Part shown: one piece after another, positions 30 through 9,955 of the stretch
How the letters are laid out: each line of letters opens with the position of its first letter
Position numbering within the stretch: the stretch's first letter is position 1
DNA from: an uncultured Fibrobacterota bacterium
GTDB taxonomy: Bacteria; Fibrobacterota; OXYB2-FULL-49-7; JAEUSG01
Assembly: GCA_964590225.1 (NCBI GenBank)
Contig: CAZPWS010000051.1
Location: forward strand, 1 to 22,661
Direction: 5' to 3'
DNA: 22,661 nt
Notes under the pieces: model-generated
The model's input: only the letters and a program-made list of their open reading frames with translations
Database searches by the model: none
What the model was told of the DNA's origin: nothing
Position numbers and translations under genes: made by a program

Positions 30-1235
30 ATGCTTAAAAAACCAGAAATATCCATGCGCAGCAGGCAGGTACCAAAATCTGCAATCCGTAAACTTATCCC
101 ATTATCCTTGCAGGCAGAGCAGCGGGGAATAAAGGTTCATAAACTCAATATTGGTCAACCCGATGTCGAAACTCCGAAGGAGTTCTGGACGGGAGTAAAA
201 AACTTCAAGGAGAGGGTTCTTGCCTATTCGCCCTCCGAAGGACGGCCAGAGTTTGTTAATTCAATGGTTGAGTACTATCGCCGCAACGGGATTAATGTAA
301 GTAAAGACCAGATTATTACTCTTGCAGGCGGAATCGAGGGTGTTCAGTTCGCATTGCTAACAGTTGCAGAGTCGGGCGACGAAATAATTACGCCGGAGCC
401 CTACTATTCGAATTATGTTGGTGTATCTACCATGACTAATGTCCGATTTGTTCCCATTACTACCACTTCGGAAAATGGCTACCACCTGCCTGATATTAGC
501 GAATTCGAAAAAAAGGTTACAACCAAAACCAAAGCCATTCTGATAACTACGCCCGGGAATCCAACTGGATGTGTATATACGCCAAAAGAGATGGCCGATA
601 TCGCTGCCTTCGCAAAAAAGCATAACCTATTTATCATTTCCGATGAGGTTTACAGGGAGTTTTCGTACGAAGAGGCCCCAGTTACAAGTATAATGCAGAT
701 TGATGGCATTGAAGATCACGCGATACTTATCGACAGCGTTTCAAAACGGTATAGTGCCTGTGGTGCCCGTCTTGGTTGCATCTTAAGCCGTAATGCGGCC
801 TTTATGGAAGCTGTTAAGGGCTATGCCACGGTCAGACTCTCTGCTCCTACTCTCGACCAAATAGGCATTGCCGAGTGCATAAACACACCAAAAGAATATT
901 TTGAACAGGTGCGGAACGATTACCGTGAGCGGCGGGATATTGTTGTCAAAACAATGAACGAGTTAAAAGATGTTTATTGCCCGACTCCTGGCGGTGCTTT
1001 TTATGCAATGGTAAAAATCAACGGGGTTGACACGGAGGATTTCGCGCAATGGCTCCTTACAGATTTTTCCTTTGAAAACGAAACTGTACTTGTTGCCCCT
1101 GGCGCTGGATTTTATGCAACGCAGGGGCTTGGCCGTGACGAAATCCGTCTTGCGTATGTATTAAAAACGGATGAGATGAAAAGAGCCGCGCTTGTGCTAC
1201 AAAGGGCTATTGAATCTTACCGAGAAAAAAAGTGA
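30..1235 (+). CDS. pyridoxal-phosphate-dependent aminotransferase class I/II (aspartate aminotransferase-like)
   Basis: 401-aa ORF with fold type I aminotransferase motifs: NIGQPDVETP, TTPGNPTG, ISDEVYREF, DSVSKRYSACGARLG (PLP lysine region), RLAYV. Confidence 0.93.
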   Translation: MLKKPEISMRSRQVPKSAIRKLIPLSLQAEQRGIKVHKLNIGQPDVETPKEFWTGVKNFKERVLAYSPSEGRPEFVNSMVEYYRRNGINVSKDQIITLAGGIEGVQFALLTVAESGDEIITPEPYYSNYVGVSTMTNVRFVPITTTSENGYHLPDISEFEKKVTTKTKAILITTPGNPTGCVYTPKEMADIAAFAKKHNLFIISDEVYREFSYEEAPVTSIMQIDGIEDHAILIDSVSKRYSACGARLGCILSRNAAFMEAVKGYATVRLSAPTLDQIGIAECINTPKEYFEQVRNDYRERRDIVVKTMNELKDVYCPTPGGAFYAMVKINGVDTEDFAQWLLTDFSFENETVLVAPGAGFYATQGLGRDEIRLAYVLKTDEMKRAALVLQRAIESYREKK

Positions 1236-3196
1236 ACAGTAAAACAAAGACTTCCATTTTATTAATTCTTGCATTTGTTTTTTCCACCTACGCGCTTGTT
1301 TACACTCCAAGGATATCAATAAAAGGGCAGGACGACTATCACTCCCTTGAGTCGATACTATCAACTGTTATTTCAGACCAAATGACAAATGCCCAAAAAG
1401 CAGAAGCAGTGTGGCGCTTTGTATTATCGGCAACCTTTCACTATAAGGCTCCGGAGGAGGGCTTAATTGATAATAGCCTCAAGTTTGAAATGAATACGCT
1501 TGAGGATCCTGTTAAGCTTCTTAACTCTTATGGCTATGCTTATTGTTTCTCCAATGTGTCAATTTTAACAAAATTATGGGAGGTTGCCGGTTTTGATTCA
1601 ACGCGGACATGGGGTATTGGTGGCCACATGATCGCGGAAGTATTTTACGATGGCGCGTGGCACCATTACGACAGCGACCAAAGTGTTTCTGCTTATTTTA
1701 TCAAGCATGACGGCAAAACAGTAGCATCTGTATCCGATATTATTGAGAGTCCAAATTTTTATATAATCGACCCAAAATATCGGTCAATTCCGCAAATGCC
1801 TTATGATAAAAATCCGATTTATTCTCACGAATCCCGTGCCGTACTTGCAAGCTATTATGCGTCGAAAAACGATAACTATATTCGGGATAGAATTGGCATA
1901 CTAACTCATAGAATGGATTATTACCTCAGAAAGAATGAGGAGCTGACTCTTTACTTTCATCCGACGGGAAAATGGCGACATACCGGTATGGATGTTTCAG
2001 TAATTAATCCGGCGTTAGGCCCTTACGACGCACATGGAACAAGAACCTATGGAAATGGAGTATTTGTTTACAAGCCAGATTTATCTTCTATTGCGGCCGT
2101 GGAAGACGGTCTTCATTCGTACAATAATGTTGTTATAAATAAAGGGATCAGACCGGCAGATCCCTCTAAAATTAGTAAGACTGTAATAAAAGTTCTTTCT
2201 CCATGGGTAATTACTGGCAGACCATTAAGTCCATCTGCTTCTGTCGATAAATATGTCGATTACTGCGATGCGGCCGTTGTTTCTGGGTTTCTAAAAAAAA
2301 CAGAGGACAAATCAGCAAAGAATGGCCCATTACTCTTCTCAATACAAATAAAAACAGAAAAACAGCCAGAATGGCAACATGTTTACTCGCAGCAACGGGA
2401 GGGATATTTCACCGTTGATTTGTCTAAATGGTTTTCTGAGGCTAATTACTACTACGAACTATCCTTTATTTTTGGTAAGGATTCCGGAAATGGATCCATT
2501 GAAGAACTGCAGATTACCACATCAGTTCAGGTTAATCCTGCTTCTCTTCCGCAACTCAAACCAGGCAATAATGAACTGATCTATTCTATGGACGGACCTG
2601 CCGTGGACAAAATATCGGTAGAAAATGGCGCTATAATTGGTCAATGCGTTGAGAAATACATCCATTCAACAGAAAATATTACAGTAACAAATGAGCAAGT
2701 CCGTCGCTTCGTGCAAACCGATAATAAAAAACCTGCGACAATAATTCTTAAACAACTGATGGAGGAGGGTACTGTAATCGACTACTGGTATGAAATGTTG
2801 TTTCACCAGAGAAAAAGTAGTACGGTGACAATAGAAAAAGCGGAGAACAAGACGGAAGAATGGGGTCTTATCGAAAAGAAAGATAAAGTACACCACGACC
2901 ACTGGGCCGAATGGCATTCTAAAATATTTAAGCCATCAACAGGGAATGCAAAAACTGTTTACTATCGCGTTACGCTTAGTGGTGGTTCTGCTTTAGTTTT
3001 GTTTAATGGCGGATACAGATATGCGTATAAGCCACCGGAGGGAAGCATCTCTGTTGAGCAAACGGCCATAATTGACGGAAAAGAGAAAGTTTTTAAATGG
3101 AACTTTAAAGAGCGCAATGGCAAAAAAGAAATTTTGATAGATGGTAAATCAGTTATCAATAAAAGTATCCGTTTTGTCTGTGGAAAACAGCCTTAA
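1232..3196 (+). CDS. secreted protein with transglutaminase-like (Cys-His-Asp) domain
   Basis: 654-aa ORF, GTG start overlapping the upstream stop; N-terminal signal-like segment (TSILLILAFVFSTYALVY); putative triad in YGYAYCFSNVSIL ... GGHMIAEVFYDGAWHHYDSD. Confidence 0.7.
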   Translation: MNSKTKTSILLILAFVFSTYALVYTPRISIKGQDDYHSLESILSTVISDQMTNAQKAEAVWRFVLSATFHYKAPEEGLIDNSLKFEMNTLEDPVKLLNSYGYAYCFSNVSILTKLWEVAGFDSTRTWGIGGHMIAEVFYDGAWHHYDSDQSVSAYFIKHDGKTVASVSDIIESPNFYIIDPKYRSIPQMPYDKNPIYSHESRAVLASYYASKNDNYIRDRIGILTHRMDYYLRKNEELTLYFHPTGKWRHTGMDVSVINPALGPYDAHGTRTYGNGVFVYKPDLSSIAAVEDGLHSYNNVVINKGIRPADPSKISKTVIKVLSPWVITGRPLSPSASVDKYVDYCDAAVVSGFLKKTEDKSAKNGPLLFSIQIKTEKQPEWQHVYSQQREGYFTVDLSKWFSEANYYYELSFIFGKDSGNGSIEELQITTSVQVNPASLPQLKPGNNELIYSMDGPAVDKISVENGAIIGQCVEKYIHSTENITVTNEQVRRFVQTDNKKPATIILKQLMEEGTVIDYWYEMLFHQRKSSTVTIEKAENKTEEWGLIEKKDKVHHDHWAEWHSKIFKPSTGNAKTVYYRVTLSGGSALVLFNGGYRYAYKPPEGSISVEQTAIIDGKEKVFKWNFKERNGKKEILIDGKSVINKSIRFVCGKQP

Positions 3197-3234: not shown

Positions 3235-3273
3235 CCAATATGACCATATAGCCATTATTGATTGGGATGTAAT

Positions 3274-3609
3274 ATGAAAAAGACGATTACAGATTCAAAA
3301 AACGGTACAAAGTATAAAGAACGGGCAAACATCTTTAAGGCGTTGGCCCACCCAACAAGGCTTAGGATATTAGATGAATTGTCAAAAGGTGAAAAATGTG
3401 TTTGCGAACTTATAGGTCTCGGTGATAGCGATCAATCAACAATATCCAAACACCTTGCATTAATGAAATCAGCCAAGATTCTTGAATCTGAACGAAGAGG
3501 TACGCAGGTTATATATAGGCTGAAAATGACCTGTGTTGTCATGTTTCTTTCGTGTATTGACAACTCAATAATTGCCGCTGCTAAAGAGAAAATCAAGGGG
3601 CTTTCATGA
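3274..3609 (+). CDS. arsR: ArsR-family metalloregulator (copy 1)
   Basis: ORF track starts at TTG 3262; ATG at 3274 gives MKKTITDSKNG. Winged-helix motif IFKALAHPTRLRILDELSKGEKCVCEL..DQSTISKHLALMKSAKIL, plus C-terminal cysteines MTCVVMFLSCIDN. Confidence 0.92.
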   Translation: MKKTITDSKNGTKYKERANIFKALAHPTRLRILDELSKGEKCVCELIGLGDSDQSTISKHLALMKSAKILESERRGTQVIYRLKMTCVVMFLSCIDNSIIAAAKEKIKGLS

Positions 3610-4904
3610 GTATAAAAGATGAAATCAAGCCATTTTTCTGGCTAATTGGTGGCTTTATTCTCGCATACTATTTACCCTTAGGCACAACCCGTTTTGACAA
3701 TGCAATATTCGAAGCATTTCATCTTGTAAAGTGGTATGCCCGTGAACATGTTCTGCTCTGCCTTGTTCCAGCTTTTTTTATAGCTGGAGCCATTAGTGTT
3801 TTTGTAAGCCAAGCATCCGTGATGAAATATCTGGGTGCAAAAGCGAATAAAGTTCTTGCTTATGGAGTTGCTTCTGTTTCCGGAACGGTACTAGCCGTTT
3901 GTTCATGCACGGTGTTACCACTATTTGCAGGTATATACAAAATGGGAGCAGGAATTGGTCCGGCCACTGCTTTTCTTTACTCTGGCCCAGCTATTAATGT
4001 TCTAGCCATTGTAATGACAGCACGAATCTTAGGTGTGGAAATGGGAATCGCAAGAGCTGTTGGCGCTATTGGCTTTGGTTTGATTATTGGGCTCGTAATG
4101 CAGTTTATTTTCAGAGAAGATGAAGCAAAAAAGATTGCCGTACAAAAAGAGATGCCGGATCCTGAAGGTGTCAGACCTCTTTCCCACACAATCATCTATT
4201 TCGCTTCCATGATAGCCATTCTTGTGTTTGCTAATTTCGGTAAAACCGAATCGACGACAGGAGTTTGGCATGTAATTTATTTAAGCAAATGGATACTGAC
4301 CTCTGTCGCAGGAGTTGTGTTCGCCTTTACCCTTGTTGCTATTATTAAAATAAAATTGTGGAAAGTAATTTTATCTTCATTGGTAGTTGCTTTTCTGGGC
4401 TTAAAATTCGGCAATAATCCTCTTGTTCCTTTTACCATTGGCGCACTTATGCTTTCGTGGATGACTGCAACAGATAAAAATGAAGGCAGTGACTGGTTTT
4501 CTTCCACATGGGGATTTATAAAGCAGATAACACCTCTCTTAATTATGGGTGTTGCGGCTGCCGGCTTCTTTTTGGGGCGCGTAGGTAATGAAGGGGTTAT
4601 TCCATCAGAATGGATTGCAAAACTTGTTGGGGGAAATTCACTGCCTGCTAACTTTTTTGCTTCGATTGTAGGTGCGTTCATGTATCTCGCAACACTCACA
4701 GAAGTTCCGATCATTCAGGGACTCATGGGAAGTGGAATGGGAAAGGGACCGGCTTTAGCGCTTCTATTGGCAGGGCCTGCGCTATCGCTTCAAAGTATGC
4801 TAGTACTCAGCACGATAATGGGTTGGAAAAAGACAGCCGTTTATATCACCCTTGTTGTGGTAATGGCAACGACATCCGGTTTGATGTATGGAAATTTATT
4901 TTAG
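3606..4904 (+). CDS. ArsP-like permease (DUF318/SO_0444-type family), putative organoarsenical exporter
   Basis: 432-aa polytopic protein, ATGA overlap with arsR1; duplicated core motifs CSCTVLPLFAGIYKMGAGIGPATAFLYSGPAINVLAIV and LTEVPIIQGLMGSGMGKGPALALLLAGPALSLQSML. Confidence 0.82.
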   Translation: MSIKDEIKPFFWLIGGFILAYYLPLGTTRFDNAIFEAFHLVKWYAREHVLLCLVPAFFIAGAISVFVSQASVMKYLGAKANKVLAYGVASVSGTVLAVCSCTVLPLFAGIYKMGAGIGPATAFLYSGPAINVLAIVMTARILGVEMGIARAVGAIGFGLIIGLVMQFIFREDEAKKIAVQKEMPDPEGVRPLSHTIIYFASMIAILVFANFGKTESTTGVWHVIYLSKWILTSVAGVVFAFTLVAIIKIKLWKVILSSLVVAFLGLKFGNNPLVPFTIGALMLSWMTATDKNEGSDWFSSTWGFIKQITPLLIMGVAAAGFFLGRVGNEGVIPSEWIAKLVGGNSLPANFFASIVGAFMYLATLTEVPIIQGLMGSGMGKGPALALLLAGPALSLQSMLVLSTIMGWKKTAVYITLVVVMATTSGLMYGNLF

Positions 4905-4914
4905 CTCACTATTA

Positions 4915-4971
4915 GACTCTGTATCGAAAAGATATACGCTTTTTGCGGATATCTTTGACGATTACAGAGTC
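4915..4971 (+). repeat. long imperfect inverted repeat (RNA hairpin or binding site) between permease and arsE
   Basis: GACTCTGTA (4915-4923) pairs with TACAGAGTC (4963-4971); AAAGATAT (4928-4935) pairs with ATATCTTT (4949-4956); apex CGC-TTTTT-GCG (4937-4947). Confidence 0.85.
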
Positions 4972-4976
4972 TTATT

Positions 4977-5004: not shown

Positions 5005-5238
5005 ATGAAGAGAATACAAGTACTTGGAACGGGATGTCCAAAATGCAAAAAACTTGCTGAAGCAGCTGACACTGCTGCAAAGGAACTTGGGTTAGAGTAT
5101 GAACTTGTAAAGGTTACGGATATTAACCAGATTATGGATTTTGGTGTTATGATGACACCGGCACTGGCTGTTGATGGGACTGTTAAAGTTGTTGGTCGGG
5201 TTCCTACAGTTGAAGAAATAAAAGGATTAATTAATTAG
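5005..5238 (+). CDS. arsE: small thioredoxin/glutaredoxin-like protein (TM0996/MTH895-type), ArsE-like
   Basis: 77 aa; MKRIQVLGTGCPKCKKLAEAA (CxxC), MMTPALAVDGTVKVVGRVPT (cis-Pro thioredoxin feature); AGGAG RBS; followed directly by arsF and arsG-like genes. Confidence 0.82.
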   Translation: MKRIQVLGTGCPKCKKLAEAADTAAKELGLEYELVKVTDINQIMDFGVMMTPALAVDGTVKVVGRVPTVEEIKGLIN

Positions 5239-5262
5239 CTTTTTTAAAATAGGGAGAATGCG

Positions 5263-5772
5263 ATGGATCATAAAACAAAAAAAATGGCAAAAAGTATTCT
5301 GATAATTGTGGTTGTTGCATTTGTTTTGGCTGGCATTGCCGCTGGAACCGCAAAAAGTTCAGCAACTAAAATCCCAGAAGACACCACAGCAGCAAAAAAA
5401 GATACTATTGCGACAAAGGTTTCCGAACCTCTTGCTGCTTCACAAACTATTGTCTATTACTTTATGACTACATACCGTTGCAGATCATGCAATTTTATTG
5501 AGAACACTACAAAAGCTGCAATCGAACAAAATTTTGCAGACCAAATTAAAAACGGTAGTATGGTATTTAAAACAATCAATGTTGATGAAAATCAGAACAA
5601 GCACTTTGTTAATAAATATGGTTTATACACAAAAACAGTTGTTGTTTCTTCTGTAAAAAATGGCGAAGAATTAAAGTGGAAGAATCTTGATCAGATCTGG
5701 AACCTCATTGGTCAGGATGAATCATTTAAGGTTTATATTGCTAACGAAATTAAAGCCTTTCTGAAATTGTGA
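5263..5772 (+). CDS. arsF: ArsF-family (nitrophenyl compound nitroreductase subunit-like) thioredoxin-like protein, N-terminally anchored or exported
   Basis: 169 aa; hydrophobic N-terminal segment SILIIVVVAFVLAGIAAG, then YYFMTTYRCRSCNFIENTTKAAIEQNF (CxxC) and a thioredoxin-like remainder; located between arsE- and arsG-like genes. Confidence 0.8.
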   Translation: MDHKTKKMAKSILIIVVVAFVLAGIAAGTAKSSATKIPEDTTAAKKDTIATKVSEPLAASQTIVYYFMTTYRCRSCNFIENTTKAAIEQNFADQIKNGSMVFKTINVDENQNKHFVNKYGLYTKTVVVSSVKNGEELKWKNLDQIWNLIGQDESFKVYIANEIKAFLKL

Positions 5773-5781
5773 AATAAGATA

Positions 5782-6471
5782 ATGGAGAAATTTTTTCTGG
5801 ATTTCTGGATTGCTCTATGGCTTGGTATTACAACTTCAATAAGTCCATGTCCTCTTGCAACTAACATAGCAGCAATTTCATATGTAGGCAGACGCGCCGG
5901 TACAGTGCGCGGAATAATTACCGCTGGACTCCTTTATACGCTTGGAAGAATGATTTCTTATTTGGCAGTCGGTTTTATAGTTACAAAAAGTCTTCTATCG
6001 ATACCTCAGCTTTCCATGTTTCTGCAAACACATATGAATCAGATAATTGGTCCGTTGCTGATTGTTGTCGGTCTTGTACTGTTTGGATTCATAGACTTCA
6101 GCACAGGTGGAGGAGGTTTTACAGAAAAACTCAAGGCAAAAGTAGATAAAGCCGGAGTTTGGGGAGCCTTGATTCTTGGTTTATTATTCGCGCTAACATT
6201 CTGTCCTGTTTCTGCCGCTCTCTTTTTTGGAAGTTTGATTCCCATAGCTGTCCGCCACTCTTCGACATTTATAATCCCATCAATTTATGGCATAGGTACG
6301 GCCGTTCCAGTTCTGGTGTTTGCAATAATCATGGCTTTTAGTGTTAGGGCGGTAGGTAAGGTTTTCAGCAAAATCACTTCCATAGAAATATGGATTCGGA
6401 GGATTATGGCTCTGGTTTTCATCGGTGCCGGTGTTTATATGACACTTGTTCATACGCTGAAATTGCTGTGA
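5782..6471 (+). CDS. arsG: ArsG-family membrane protein (CcdA/DsbD-like fold)
   Basis: 229 aa polytopic protein; two CcdA-like Cys-Pro motifs, TSISPCPLATN and LTFCPVSAALFFGSLIP; gene order arsE-arsF-arsG. Confidence 0.82.
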   Translation: MEKFFLDFWIALWLGITTSISPCPLATNIAAISYVGRRAGTVRGIITAGLLYTLGRMISYLAVGFIVTKSLLSIPQLSMFLQTHMNQIIGPLLIVVGLVLFGFIDFSTGGGGFTEKLKAKVDKAGVWGALILGLLFALTFCPVSAALFFGSLIPIAVRHSSTFIIPSIYGIGTAVPVLVFAIIMAFSVRAVGKVFSKITSIEIWIRRIMALVFIGAGVYMTLVHTLKLL

Positions 6472-6560: not shown

Positions 6561-7364
6561 ATGAACCCAATCTCAGTAAAATCAATGGTTAAAAAAAAAT
6601 ACGCTTCAATTGCAACAGGAGGGGGCAGCGGGTGTTGTTCTTCCGGCTGTTGCGGCAGTGGTGAGGTTGACTATTCAATATTTAGCGATGATTATTCCAA
6701 ACTGGATGGCTATGTCCCTGAAGCCGACCTTAACCTTGGCTGCGGAATGCCAACAAAATATGCTGCCATAAAAGAGGGACAGACTGTAGTCGATCTTGGA
6801 TCGGGGGCCGGTAACGACTGTTTTGTGGTTCGCAGAATTGTCGGCGAGACAGGAAATGTCATTGGTCTTGATATGACCGAAGAAATGGTGACCAAGGCAA
6901 AAGAAAACAATAGGAAAATGGGTTATACAAATGTCGATTTTCGCTTAGGTGACATAGAGGACATGCCTATTGAATCCAATATTGCTGATGTTGTAGTCAG
7001 CAACTGCGTGTTAAATCTTGTACCAGATAAAGGAAAAGCTTTTTCTGAAATTTTGCGCATACTCAAGCCTGGTGGCCATTTTTGCGTCTCTGACATCGTA
7101 ATTAAGGGTGAGATGCCGGAGAAACTAAAACGAGTTGCTGAACTGTACGCAGGCTGTATTTCAGGAGCACTTGCAAAGAGTGAATATCTTGATATAATTA
7201 GTTCCACAGGTTTTGAGAGTGTTAGCATCGAAAGTGAAAAAGAATACCATATACCAGATGAAGTATTAGCCGAATACATGGATATAAATGCGTTGCAGAA
7301 TTTTCGAAAGAGTAATGTTAAAGTACTAAGCATAACGGTTGTTGCAAAAAAACCGAAGGGATGA
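6561..7364 (+). CDS. arsM: arsenite S-adenosylmethionine methyltransferase ArsM
   Basis: 267 aa; DLGSGAGNDCFV SAM site; conserved ArsM cysteine contexts DLNLGCGMPTKYA, SNCVLNLVPDK, AGCISGALAK; N-terminal GGGSGCCSSGCCGSG. Confidence 0.95.
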   Translation: MNPISVKSMVKKKYASIATGGGSGCCSSGCCGSGEVDYSIFSDDYSKLDGYVPEADLNLGCGMPTKYAAIKEGQTVVDLGSGAGNDCFVVRRIVGETGNVIGLDMTEEMVTKAKENNRKMGYTNVDFRLGDIEDMPIESNIADVVVSNCVLNLVPDKGKAFSEILRILKPGGHFCVSDIVIKGEMPEKLKRVAELYAGCISGALAKSEYLDIISSTGFESVSIESEKEYHIPDEVLAEYMDINALQNFRKSNVKVLSITVVAKKPKG

Positions 7365-7723
7365 TTATGAAAGAAATTGTTGCCATTGCCAAAGCTTTAT
7401 CTGATGAAAATCGTGTCAAGGCTCTATTGCTTTTATGTAAGCGGGAAGTCTGCGTTTGTCAGATTGTTGACTTTTTAAAGTTGGCGCCTTCCACTGTCTC
7501 GAAACATATGAGCATTCTTAAAGCTGCCGGCCTTGTGGAGAGCCGAAAGGAAGAGCGATGGATGTATTATCGACATGCTCAGAAAGGAGTTTCTGCTGTA
7601 GTTGACGAGGCTTTGTCATGGCTATCAAAAAACTTAAACTGTGATATTAACAAAAAAGAATGCTGCGGCATTCAAATACCGAGAAGCATATTGGAGAAAA
7701 AATGTATAACAAAGAAAAACTAA
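7361..7723 (+). CDS. arsR: ArsR-family metalloregulator (copy 2)
   Basis: 120 aa; ALSDENRVKALLLLCKREVCVCQIVDFLKLAPSTVSKHMSILKAAGLVESRKEERWMYYR; C-terminal NCDINKKECCG; ATGA overlap with arsM (ATG at 7367 is an alternative start). Confidence 0.93.
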   Translation: MIMKEIVAIAKALSDENRVKALLLLCKREVCVCQIVDFLKLAPSTVSKHMSILKAAGLVESRKEERWMYYRHAQKGVSAVVDEALSWLSKNLNCDINKKECCGIQIPRSILEKKCITKKN

Positions 7724-8145
7724 AGATATTGTTTCTTTGTACAGGAAATTCCTGTAGAAGCCAAATGGCTGAAGGGTGGGCACGATACTTAAAAGGGGAT
7801 ATTATTGAAGCATATTCTGCGGGAATTGAAACACACGGTCTTAACCCAAATGCAGTGAAAATAATGGCTGAAGCTGGGGTTGATATTTCAAACCATGCAT
7901 CAAAAAATGTTCGGGATTTAATGCACATTAAATTCGATTATGTAGTAACTGTTTGTGGCCACGCCAACGAAAACTGCCCTTTTTTTCCCGGAAAAGCAAA
8001 AATTGTTCATAAAGGATTTGATGACCCACCGCAACTTGCAAATAACTCAAGAAATGAAGAGGAAGCGTTAAATCACTATAGACGGATAAGAGATGAGATT
8101 AGAGATTTTATAAAGCAGCTCCCAGAAAATCTTTCCACTTTATAG
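7702..8145 (+). CDS. arsC: thioredoxin-type arsenate reductase (LMW protein tyrosine phosphatase family)
   Basis: ATG 7702 preceded by GGAG; P-loop ILFLCTGNSCRSQMAEGWAR and C-terminal redox pair VVTVCGHANENCPFFPGKAK. The ORF track start at 7660 is probably too far upstream. Confidence 0.94.
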   Translation: MYNKEKLKILFLCTGNSCRSQMAEGWARYLKGDIIEAYSAGIETHGLNPNAVKIMAEAGVDISNHASKNVRDLMHIKFDYVVTVCGHANENCPFFPGKAKIVHKGFDDPPQLANNSRNEEEALNHYRRIRDEIRDFIKQLPENLSTL

Positions 8146-8162
8146 TTTACAAAGGATTAACT

Positions 8163-9242
8163 ATGGAAAACAATAAAAATATTGGCATAAATTTTTTTGA
8201 AAAATATCTCACTGTTTGGGTCATACTTTGTATGATTACAGGGGTCTTAATTGGTAAATTTTTACCAGCCATACCTGCCTTTCTTTCAAATTTTGAATAT
8301 GCGCGAGTCTCTATTCCCATCGCCATCCTCATCTGGTTAATGATTTATCCAATGATGATGAAAGTTGATTTCGCAAGTATTAAAGATGTTGGCAAGAATC
8401 CAAAAGGATTGTTTTTAACATGGATCATAAACTGGTTGGTTAAGCCATTTACAATGTATGCGATTGCATGGTTTTTTTTCTACATTGTATTCAAAAACAA
8501 TATCTCCCCCGACCTTGCAAAGAGCTATTTAGCCGGAGCTATTCTGCTTGGCGCTGCACCATGTACGGCTATGGTATTTGTCTGGAGCCATTTAACAAGA
8601 GGCAACCCTGCTTATACGGTAGTACAGGTTGCAACAAACGATATTATAATTCTTGTAGCATTCACACCAATAGTCGGATTTCTTCTTGGTATTAGCAACA
8701 TTGTTATTCCATGGAACACTTTACTCCTGTCTATGGTTCTTTTTGTTGTTTTTCCTCTTACAGGAGGCATAGTCACAAGATTATTGATTGTAAAAAATAA
8801 AGGCGAGGAGTACTTTACAAAATCATTTATACCAAAGTTCAGCAGTGTAACAATCGGGGGGTTGCTTCTTACGCTGATTCTGATCTTTTCGTTTCAGGGA
8901 GAAATTATTCTTAATAAACCTCTCCACATATTCATTATTGCTATCCCGTTAATAATCCAGACCGTTTTAATATTCTTTATTGCCTATTTGGTAGCCCGAA
9001 AACTAAGACTGCCACATAATATCGCAGCTCCTGCCGGAATGATCGGCGCGTCAAACTTTTTTGAACTTGCTGTTGCTGTTGCAATCGCACTTTTTGGAGC
9101 AACCTCCCCAGCTGTGCTTGCCACAATTGTTGGGGTTCTGGTAGAAGTTCCTATAATGTTAATGCTGGTACAAGTAGCAAATAAAACGGCGTATCTTAGT
9201 ACTCAAAACTCCACCAGTACCAAGCATTTAGACCTACACTGA
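8163..9242 (+). CDS. acr3: Acr3-family arsenite efflux transporter
   Basis: 359 aa; YLTVWVILCMITGVLIG, LIWLMIYPMMMKVDFASI, LGAAPCTAMVFVWSHLTRGNPAYTVVQVATND, GMIGASNFFELAVAVAIALFG. Confidence 0.95.
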   Translation: MENNKNIGINFFEKYLTVWVILCMITGVLIGKFLPAIPAFLSNFEYARVSIPIAILIWLMIYPMMMKVDFASIKDVGKNPKGLFLTWIINWLVKPFTMYAIAWFFFYIVFKNNISPDLAKSYLAGAILLGAAPCTAMVFVWSHLTRGNPAYTVVQVATNDIIILVAFTPIVGFLLGISNIVIPWNTLLLSMVLFVVFPLTGGIVTRLLIVKNKGEEYFTKSFIPKFSSVTIGGLLLTLILIFSFQGEIILNKPLHIFIIAIPLIIQTVLIFFIAYLVARKLRLPHNIAAPAGMIGASNFFELAVAVAIALFGATSPAVLATIVGVLVEVPIMLMLVQVANKTAYLSTQNSTSTKHLDLH

Positions 9243-9876
9243 TATCTTTTTCCTTTATGCCACTTATTGGAAATGAAATCGCCCAATTGTGTGGGGTTTC
9301 TTTTATGCCAAACCAAAATCCCGGATCAATCGAGAAGGTTATTGCCGTTGCAGCAGTGCCGTAACTTTTGGCTGGATTAAATTCAAGAAACGGATAAAAC
9401 TGATCAGGAATTGATTTATAAACTATGCCAAAACTCGCCCAGACCGTTCCCTCGCTAAAGTCAGAGGCCGAAAGGTCAAGCGCTGCATTTAATTCTAATA
9501 CGACTTTACTAAACTCCTTATTCAAGTGATATTGCGGAGAAAAAGACCAATTATCAAAATCGGTACCAATTTTAAGAGCAAGGACATTGCTTTCATTTAA
9601 CGCAAATCGGGGCATTACCTCAACACCACCCCATGAAAAATCGTTTAACGGTGAGATCTTTGAGAGATTAACTATTGCGTCAAACCTTTCGCCAATCCCA
9701 AAAGCTGTGTTAATATCCAGAGTTGAAGAGCCAAAATCTGAGATACCTCCTCCCCAGATTGTTGGTGCAATGGCAAGTGTTCTATTGCCGGTCATTGTTG
9801 TCCACGCGGTATAGGTGTAACAAAAAGAGAGCGATACCATAGCAATAAGTAGTAGATATATCTTCTTGGCTAACAT
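9196..9876 (-). CDS. outer-membrane beta-barrel-like protein of unknown function
   Basis: ORF track 9915-9196; likely ATG 9876 (GAAAGGAATTAC upstream) gives signal-like MLAKKIYLLLIAMVSLSF; alternating beta-strand pattern and terminal aromatic residue (SFEY). Confidence 0.65.
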   Translation of the reverse strand: MLAKKIYLLLIAMVSLSFCYTYTAWTTMTGNRTLAIAPTIWGGGISDFGSSTLDINTAFGIGERFDAIVNLSKISPLNDFSWGGVEVMPRFALNESNVLALKIGTDFDNWSFSPQYHLNKEFSKVVLELNAALDLSASDFSEGTVWASFGIVYKSIPDQFYPFLEFNPAKSYGTAATAITFSIDPGFWFGIKETPHNWAISFPISGIKEKDISVGLNAWYWWSFEY

Positions 9877-9955
9877 GTAATTCCTTTCAGATTTAAATGG
9901 ATTCTTTTCAACCATGCAAATATACGGTATTGATGGGCATCGTGCTCATGGTATT

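Follow-up and report, generated by a model that had tools for sequence, protein, structure and literature searches.

ArsE, ArsG and ArsF as a candidate CcdA-type transmembrane thiol-disulfide relay for arsenic stress

Described relays and the arsEFG genes

In the CcdA system, a cytoplasmic thioredoxin is the donor to the membrane protein CcdA, and an exported, membrane-tethered thioredoxin-fold protein with a CxxC motif (ResA, StoA or CcmG) is the acceptor. CcdA, represented by the Thermus thermophilus structure 5VKV, has six helices arranged as an inverted repeat, a Cys-Pro in each of transmembrane helices 1 and 4 (TM1 and TM4), and its N-terminus outside the cytoplasm. We analyzed a stretch of 22,661 nucleotides (nt) from an uncultured Fibrobacterota bacterium (contig CAZPWS010000051.1; "the window" means this whole stretch), in which arsE, arsF and arsG lie consecutively on the forward strand between arsR-arsP and arsM-arsR-arsC-acr3. 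ArsG resembles CcdA in each of these features, as far as prediction goes, and ArsE and ArsF are candidates for the donor and the acceptor. We propose, as a reading that we hold to be somewhat probable, that arsEFG encodes a transmembrane thiol-disulfide relay of the CcdA type that serves specifically in arsenic stress and runs from ArsE through ArsG to ArsF. The proposal builds on homologies and folds, invariant cysteines, export signals, predicted membrane orientation and strict coupling of arsF to arsG.

The likeness has its bounds. ArsG and CcdA are only about 22% identical, a relation that PDB sequence searches do not recover. In the window, unlike in CcdA systems, the candidate donor and acceptor are encoded alongside the membrane protein under ArsR control, and there is no link to cytochrome c maturation. 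Unlike the CcdA acceptors, ArsF appears to have no cis-proline and carries an invariant arginine ahead of its first cysteine. DsbD and ScsB (Escherichia coli, Salmonella) offer a second comparison: ArsG Cys23 falls on the catalytic Cys163 of DsbD, and a natural ArsF-ArsG fusion (P0235, described below) shares with these proteins an N-terminal periplasmic domain followed by a membrane core. However, DsbD has eight helices to the six of ArsG, which also lacks the C-terminal thioredoxin domain, and the N-terminal DsbD-alpha domain is immunoglobulin-like, whereas ArsF has a thioredoxin fold and is normally a separate polypeptide.

The arsEFG genes themselves are already known and named. ArsEFG of Shewanella putrefaciens 200, from the 2019 work of Chen, Zhang and Rosen, is the basis of the families TIGR00412, NF040494 and NF040495; the window has the same gene order in its ars operon, and its proteins score above the curated cut-offs. 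The Shewanella proteins are described as a nitroreductase pair and an efflux permease, whereas the anatomy in the window would put ArsE on one side of the membrane, ArsF on the other and ArsG in between. Other systems resemble parts of arsEFG. The small thioredoxin-like folds ArsD (an As(III) chaperone) and R773-type ArsC (an arsenate reductase) also belong to ars operons and act on arsenic through cysteines and, in ArsC, also arginines; ArsF similarly has invariant basic residues near its cysteines. They are cytoplasmic, unlike the exported ArsF, and have no detectable sequence relation to it. What is new here is the reading of the mechanism, and of ArsF as an atypical, exported thioredoxin fold that forms an obligate pair with a CcdA homologue. 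Literature searches, within the papers available to us, turned up citations of the original ArsEFG paper but no proposal of an ArsEFG relay.

Folds, cysteine pairs and predicted membrane sides

ArsE, ArsF and ArsG each have exactly two cysteines, all at motif positions. The initial annotation, made from the sequence of the window, took these to be placed like an electron chain. The paired cysteines are present in all three proteins, and their predicted compartments are those expected of such a chain, with ArsE as the putative donor.

ArsE had been described as a cytosolic-looking thioredoxin with the motif GCPKC, and our searches agree. The protein scores 112.5 bits against TIGR00412 'MTH895/ArsE' (curated cut-off 62) and matches Pfam Thioredoxin_3 with an expect value (E) of 4.9e-28, and PDB entry 1ILO (MTH895) matches it over its full length at 6.9e-18. 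It begins directly with strand 1 of an MTH895-type thioredoxin and has no signal sequence; an AGGAG stands 7 nt before the arsE ATG. GCPKC occupies residues 10-14, and the typical cis-proline context (MMTPALAV), as read from the sequence, is kept. All 68 complete ArsE proteins encoded beside arsFG have a CxxC motif, most commonly CPKC or CAKC.

The assignment of ArsG as a CcdA/DsbD-like protein with the motifs SISPCPLA and LTFCPVSA also held. ArsG scores 281.2 bits against NF040495 (cut-off 200), and its sole Pfam match at E<=0.01 is PF13386 DsbD_2 (4.1e-14; 53.4 bits, cut-off 24.9; profile positions 2-198 of 199), with no transporter family; some close homologues also match PF02683. DsbD_2 is the 'cytochrome c biogenesis protein transmembrane region'. 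A Foldseek search of the PDB returned one credible match, CcdA 5VKV (probability 1.00, 226 columns, 22% identity), and all matches to transporter folds had probabilities of 0.47 or lower. The query, an AlphaFold2 (AF2) model of moderate confidence (predicted local distance difference test, pLDDT, 68), has helix breaks at residues 20-22 and 139-141. Across 78 homologues with 52-81% identity, S21-P22-C23-P24 and F140-C141-P142 are invariant. The two halves of ArsG align with each other at E 1.7e-4 with SPCP over FCPV, and each three-helix repeat thus supplies one Cys-Pro, in TM1 (Cys23) and TM4 (Cys141). Aligned with E. coli DsbD by hhalign (E 2.4e-4, at a low probability of 43%), Cys23 falls on DsbD Cys182, the catalytic Cys163 of the mature protein, and Cys141 falls within 2 residues of DsbD Cys304/285. 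Used as a bridge to the PDB, E. coli DsbD recovered its soluble domains alone. Because lysine and arginine follow the positive-inside pattern, with mean counts over the 78 sequences of 3.2, 3.6 and 4.7 in loops 1, 3 and 5 against 1.5 and 0.7 in loops 2 and 4 and 0.03 at the N-terminus, both termini of ArsG are predicted to lie outside, as in CcdA.

ArsF scores 108.3 bits against NF040494 (cut-off 60), which covers only residues 64-165. It matches no Pfam family; the sub-threshold matches are Glrx-like, Thioredoxin_2 and Thioredoxin. In the AF2 model, the domain runs beta-alpha-beta-alpha-beta-beta-alpha (strands 60-68, 100-106, 125-132 and 135-141; helices 74-90, 114-119 and 152-168), with the CxxC at the N-terminus of the first domain helix, 74-90. 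Foldseek gave 82 matches in the PDB at E<=1e-3 (best 1.1e-5); thioredoxins make up nearly all of the 50 best ones that were listed. With hhalign, the active-site motif of ArsF aligns over the CPKC helix of ArsE at E 2e-5; this alignment is confined to the CxxC helix, and a global one failed.

An exhaustive profile search with ArsF retrieved 3,724 representatives at E<=1e-3 from 1.84 billion clusters at the 50%-identity level, and we examined conservation in the best 150 of these, which are mutually less than 50% identical. R72, C73, C76 and W146 are invariant in all 150, E80 and H114 nearly so, and position 75 is S or T in 137. The commonest variant in ArsF, CP[ST]C, also forms the active site of CcmG, a reductase fed by DsbD. 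Residue 124, before the strand 125-132, is K or R in 140 of the 150 and never P; its equivalence to the cis-proline position comes from the secondary-structure register only. R72, K124, K140 and H114 lie in loops that should surround the CxxC.

The initial annotation had described ArsF as a membrane or export segment followed by YRCRSC, and had named a cytosolic location as one finding that would speak against its relay. The segment is present as hydrophobic residues 5-26 and the motif as residues 71-76. A positive n-region and a hydrophobic segment open 148 of the 150 representatives, with a lipobox in at least 16 and plain cleavable signal peptides in several; the linker that follows differs in length and sequence among homologues. 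Because of these signals, we predict from sequence that ArsF is exported and stays tethered to the membrane's outer face through either a signal anchor or a lipid. The same 148 of 150 led us to reject a cytoplasmic enzyme subunit, and the order of domains in the fusion agrees.

Several homologues elaborate on this plan. One of 269 amino acids (P0236) has a lipoprotein signal and about 120 residues of Cys/Pro-rich repeats (CPxxxxxACPK-like) ahead of its thioredoxin domain, and from their sequence the repeats look like extracellular soft-metal or metalloid binding sites. Two others (P0131 and P0132) have two ArsF domains in one exported protein, with R-C-x-[ST]-C in each. The arsF gene is sometimes tandemly duplicated ahead of arsG (loci L152, 870-1895, and L165, 585-1609).

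The predicted membrane sides bear on the published model, which takes ArsG for a plain secondary permease that exports trivalent aminophenyl arsenicals, and ArsE and ArsF together for a nitroreductase; the cysteines would then act within each protein on its own rather than as a chain. This model underlies the curated NCBIfam names, which the Prokaryotic Genome Annotation Pipeline (PGAP) spreads, for example to a Prevotella plasmid, and it has published experiments behind it: Chen, Zhang and Rosen reportedly found, in E. coli, ArsG-dependent efflux of trivalent aminophenyl arsenicals and nitro reduction that depended on ArsE and ArsF. Moreover, DsbD-type folds belong to the LysE transporter superfamily and are related to LysE-type exporters, so the fold alone would also be compatible with transport. 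However, ArsE has no signal and ArsF is exported in 148 of 150 representatives, which puts them on opposite sides of the membrane; hence, if so placed, they cannot form a soluble enzyme. Neither contains a nitroreductase, flavin or NAD(P)H domain in Pfam or NCBIfam, both being thioredoxin folds, and ArsG matches DsbD_2 and no Pfam transporter family. The size of the family and its spread among anaerobes are also unlike a native role against synthetic nitro-arsenicals. The E. coli host has a DsbD of its own that could have supplied ArsF in heterologous tests and would account for activity in the absence of ArsG. We consider the published model highly improbable for these proteins.

Linkage of arsF, arsG and their neighbours

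We assembled two sets of loci: (i) a set of 80 loci from many phyla seeded on ArsG, for which the scan patterns included the cysteine motifs, so that cysteine conservation is built in there; and (ii) a set seeded on ArsF only, with no selection on ArsG. In the first set, arsF immediately precedes arsG in 76 of 80 loci (by a looser count, ArsF is present in 77 of 80), and in the remaining loci arsG lies at a contig end or no more than about 700 bp from one. In the second, arsG follows arsF, or the second of two tandem arsF genes, in 59 of the 59 loci with room for it. Their ArsG proteins are 42-57% identical to that of the window; Cys23 is kept in 73 of 73 of them, and Cys141 in 67 of 67. This repeat on ArsF-seeded loci rules out a scan artefact, and the prospect that the CcdA-like cysteines might turn out unconserved, raised in the initial annotation as grounds for rejecting its relay, did not materialize in either these loci or the 78 homologues. 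ArsF look-ups, the window protein included, gave an arsG neighbour in three of three.

The coupling extends to the spacing of the genes. The two genes overlap, arsF stop with arsG start, in 56 of 76 loci and are at most 20 nt apart in 73 of 76; the gap in the window is 9 nt. In P0235 they are one gene: this natural fusion has a signal peptide, an ArsF domain (43-158), a Pro/Ser-rich linker and an ArsG part (DsbD_2, 180-385). Its order therefore puts ArsF and the N-terminus of ArsG both outside, as no other arrangement makes sense. Together with the CcdA fold match and the thioredoxin fold of ArsF, this constant adjacency backs the analogy, drawn in the initial annotation, to a chain from thioredoxin through CcdA or DsbD to an exported thioredoxin-like protein.

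ArsE is present in 60 of the 63 loci with room for it, mostly directly upstream of arsF. The gene for the permease ArsP lies upstream of arsEFG in 47 of 63 loci, the order arsR-arsP-arsE-arsF-arsG being the commonest (42 of 63), and the ArsP motif CSC[TS][VI][LM]P is kept in 49 of 50. ArsP may thus be a fourth partner of the arsEFG module. About a fifth of the loci have arsEFG without arsP, and the existence of such sets led us to reject the idea that ArsE belongs solely to the ArsP permease. No second exported protein is conserved in the operon across the compared loci.

The frequent company of arsP raises the question of whether the relay, if real, serves a protein: ArsF might keep outward-facing thiols, such as the CSC pair of ArsP or those of other envelope dithiol proteins, reduced or free of arsenic. 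The upstream position of arsP and its conserved CSC fit this idea, the four genes stay together in altered order in Prevotella, and the known clients of CcdA and DsbD are proteins. On the other hand, about a fifth of the loci have arsEFG but not arsP, ArsF appears to lack the cis-proline that supports the handling of protein substrates in other family members, and the operon holds no other conserved exported protein. We regard a protein target as improbable.

The arsEFG family is very large, spans many mostly anaerobic phyla and is almost always under ArsR control; ArsG alone accounts for at least 8,000 clusters at the 90% level. Some of its settings are of interest in themselves. On a Prevotella nigrescens plasmid (L168; NZ_CP072340.1, 4117-8566), the order is arsR-arsF-arsG-arsE-arsP-arsC-acr3, and the module adjoins integrase, VapE and toprim genes, which indicates that the arsEFG-arsP module is carried by a mobile element in a bacterium of the human mouth. 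In other organisms, arsEFG lies amid thiol and redox genes (L085, 7407-10501; L087, 748-4988; L152, 424-873; L165, 139-588), namely those for DGC-domain proteins (PF08859, Cys-rich), glycine-cleavage H-like lipoyl carriers, OsmC and a pyridine-nucleotide disulfide oxidoreductase. These neighbours may serve specifically to supply the relay with reductant. In an Anaerolineales genome (L050, 6718-7893), a longer DsbD_TM-family protein (391 amino acids, PF02683 at 158-388) is encoded directly downstream of arsG.

In the window, open reading frames (ORFs) with Pfam and NCBIfam scans give a forward-strand operon of the order arsR-arsP-arsE-arsF-arsG-arsM-arsR-arsC-acr3 (Table 1). The gap between the arsP stop and the arsE start contains a nested inverted repeat at 4914-4972 that forms a long hairpin followed by a T-rich stretch. 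As RNA, it has a folding energy of -30.1 kcal/mol (z-score -6.6; none of 200 shuffles was equally stable), and it may separate arsP from arsEFG as an attenuator, processing site or mRNA stabiliser. Rfam gave no match anywhere in the window.

Table 1. Features of the ars operon and of the arsEFG products in the window
Feature	Position	Strand	Remarks
arsR (first)	3262-3609	+	HTH_5 9.8e-11; likely operon repressor
ArsP-like permease (ArsP_1 family)	3606-4904	+	Pfam ArsP_1 1.1e-67; CSC pair at residues 99-101, in membrane
arsE	5005-5238	+	77 amino acids; TIGR00412, Thioredoxin_3
ArsE active-site codons C11-P-K-C14	5035-5046	+	CxxC
arsF	5263-5772	+	169 amino acids; NF040494
ArsF signal anchor, residues 5-26	5275-5340	+	AF2 helix; KTKKMAK precedes
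ArsF low-complexity linker, residues 27-59	5341-5439	+	pLDDT about 48-65, without secondary structure
ArsF thioredoxin-fold domain, residues 60-168	5440-5766	+	AF2 pLDDT 95-98
ArsF active-site codons C73-R-S-C76	5479-5490	+	family motif R-C-x-[ST]-C
arsG	5782-6471	+	229 amino acids; CcdA/DsbD-type six-helix membrane protein
ArsG TM1 motif SISPCPLA (Cys23)	5836-5859	+	
ArsG TM4 motif LTFCPVSA (Cys141)	6193-6216	+	
arsM	6561-7364	+	NCBIfam arsenite methyltransferase 338 bits
arsR (second)	7361-7723	+	
arsC, thioredoxin-type	7702-8145	+	arsC_pI258 family 155 bits, below its 174.3-bit cut-off
acr3	8163-9242	+	NCBIfam acr3 385 bits

Some gene boundaries need comment. The first arsR, whose stop overlaps the arsP start by 4 nt, is called from a TTG at 3262, and translation more plausibly begins four codons on, at the ATG at 3274 (MKKTITD...). 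As listed, the arsC ORF (7660-8145) begins 64 nt before the second arsR ends; the ATG at 7702, after a GGAG, is the likelier start, and public gene calls on identical contigs give a product of 126 or 147 amino acids, not 161. Two ORFs without Pfam matches flank the operon: one at 1232-3196 (forward strand, 654 amino acids) with an N-terminal hydrophobic segment, and one at 9196-9915 (reverse strand, 239 amino acids) that overlaps the 3' end of acr3.

A possible relay and its meaning for arsenic resistance

In the relay that we favor, ArsE, small and with its CPKC motif, would be reduced in the cytoplasm and would then reduce the Cys23-Cys141 pair of ArsG. This pair would sit on two kinked helices, TM1 and TM4, in the middle of a six-helix protein made of two inverted three-helix repeats. 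ArsG would turn the pair outward, as CcdA and DsbD do, and reduce the CxxC of ArsF. Reduced ArsF, tethered outside, would be the working end, and a small arsenical would be a more likely target than a protein. We favor a small, possibly anionic arsenical because no other exported operon protein is conserved and because the ArsF site is basic and has no cis-proline; the basic surround and the missing proline point, though only as a hint, to an anionic substrate, for example a pentavalent arsenical. The initial annotation had named a nitroarsenical, a pentavalent methylarsenical and arsenate as possible substrates. We infer the direction and nature of the transfer, the exchange itself, the part of ArsE as donor and the substrate. 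Within the reach of sequence analysis, structure prediction and comparative genomics, the relay is supported.

The same anatomy would equally well fit a hand-over of arsenic. In that case, a trivalent arsenical would pass by thiol ligand exchange from the ArsE CxxC to Cys23/Cys141 of ArsG, which would flip it outward in a CcdA-type movement, and on to ArsF for release outside, making ArsG a thiol-dependent exporter. This would be a MerP-MerT-type relay in reverse. The mercury system likewise has a periplasmic CxxC (MerP), a membrane cysteine pair (MerT) and a cytoplasmic CxxC (the N-terminal domain of MerA), but it has no homology to arsEFG and works inward, pulled by reduction to Hg(0), so that the analogy is one of working only. 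Invariant cysteine pairs in three compartments, the arsF-arsG coupling and the fusion are what a hand-over would also produce, and it squares with the curated name 'efflux permease' and with the efflux phenotype that is said to underlie it. The frequent partner ArsP has a membrane CSC pair, the Cys/Pro-rich linker of P0236 is metal-binding-looking, and ars operons are known to encode As(III)-binding thioredoxin folds (ArsD). Loss of the cis-proline, as apparently in ArsF, favors ligand binding at the CxxC in other thioredoxins. However, without an energy source or an external sink, pure exchange would equilibrate rather than pump, and the tight binding of As(III) by dithiols would make release from a stoichiometric, tethered ArsF slow. 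The basic residues around the ArsF CxxC would be needless for neutral trivalent arsenicals, and we know of no CcdA or DsbD homologue that carries a metalloid. We judge arsenic hand-over to be unlikely.

Several observations weigh against the thiol-disulfide relay. The 5VKV match to ArsG reaches only E 0.02 and a template modelling score of 0.46, on the model of pLDDT 68, and the alignment to DsbD has the low probability given above. Searches of PDB sequences with ArsG by itself, or with a profile of 31 sequences, returned no match. P0235 is a single fusion, with no further ArsF-ArsG fusion among 160 loci. ArsE is absent from a few loci and often adjoins arsP, and it may serve the permease instead. 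The apparent lack of a cis-proline in ArsF, the room that the fold leaves for transport and the phenotypes reported from E. coli count on the same side, and the benefit of an extracytoplasmic reductase for arsenic resistance is not obvious.

A bolder idea, which we put forward only tentatively, is that ArsF is the first detoxifying arsenical reductase outside the cytoplasm or, alternatively, that the CcdA fold has been turned to a new use, the outward transport of thiol-bound As(III). As a periplasmic reductase, ArsF would use its CxxC, lined by Arg, Lys and His, to reduce an anionic arsenical, be it arsenate, methyl- or aryl-arsonate or a thio-arsenical, with electrons from cytoplasmic thiols, delivered via ArsE and ArsG. 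In either version, if true, the labels 'nitroreductase subunit' and 'efflux permease' would describe side effects in E. coli.

The NCBI pipeline names the arsEFG genes from one heterologous study on synthetic poultry-feed arsenicals, and the feeding of ArsF by E. coli DsbD may be a specific confound in the existing data. The annotation of arsEFG as a nitroreductase pair with an efflux pump may be wrong. If the proposed relay is real, a whole family is annotated with a mechanism that its topology in the cell makes unlikely, and arsenic resistance would include an unrecognised arm outside the cytoplasm.

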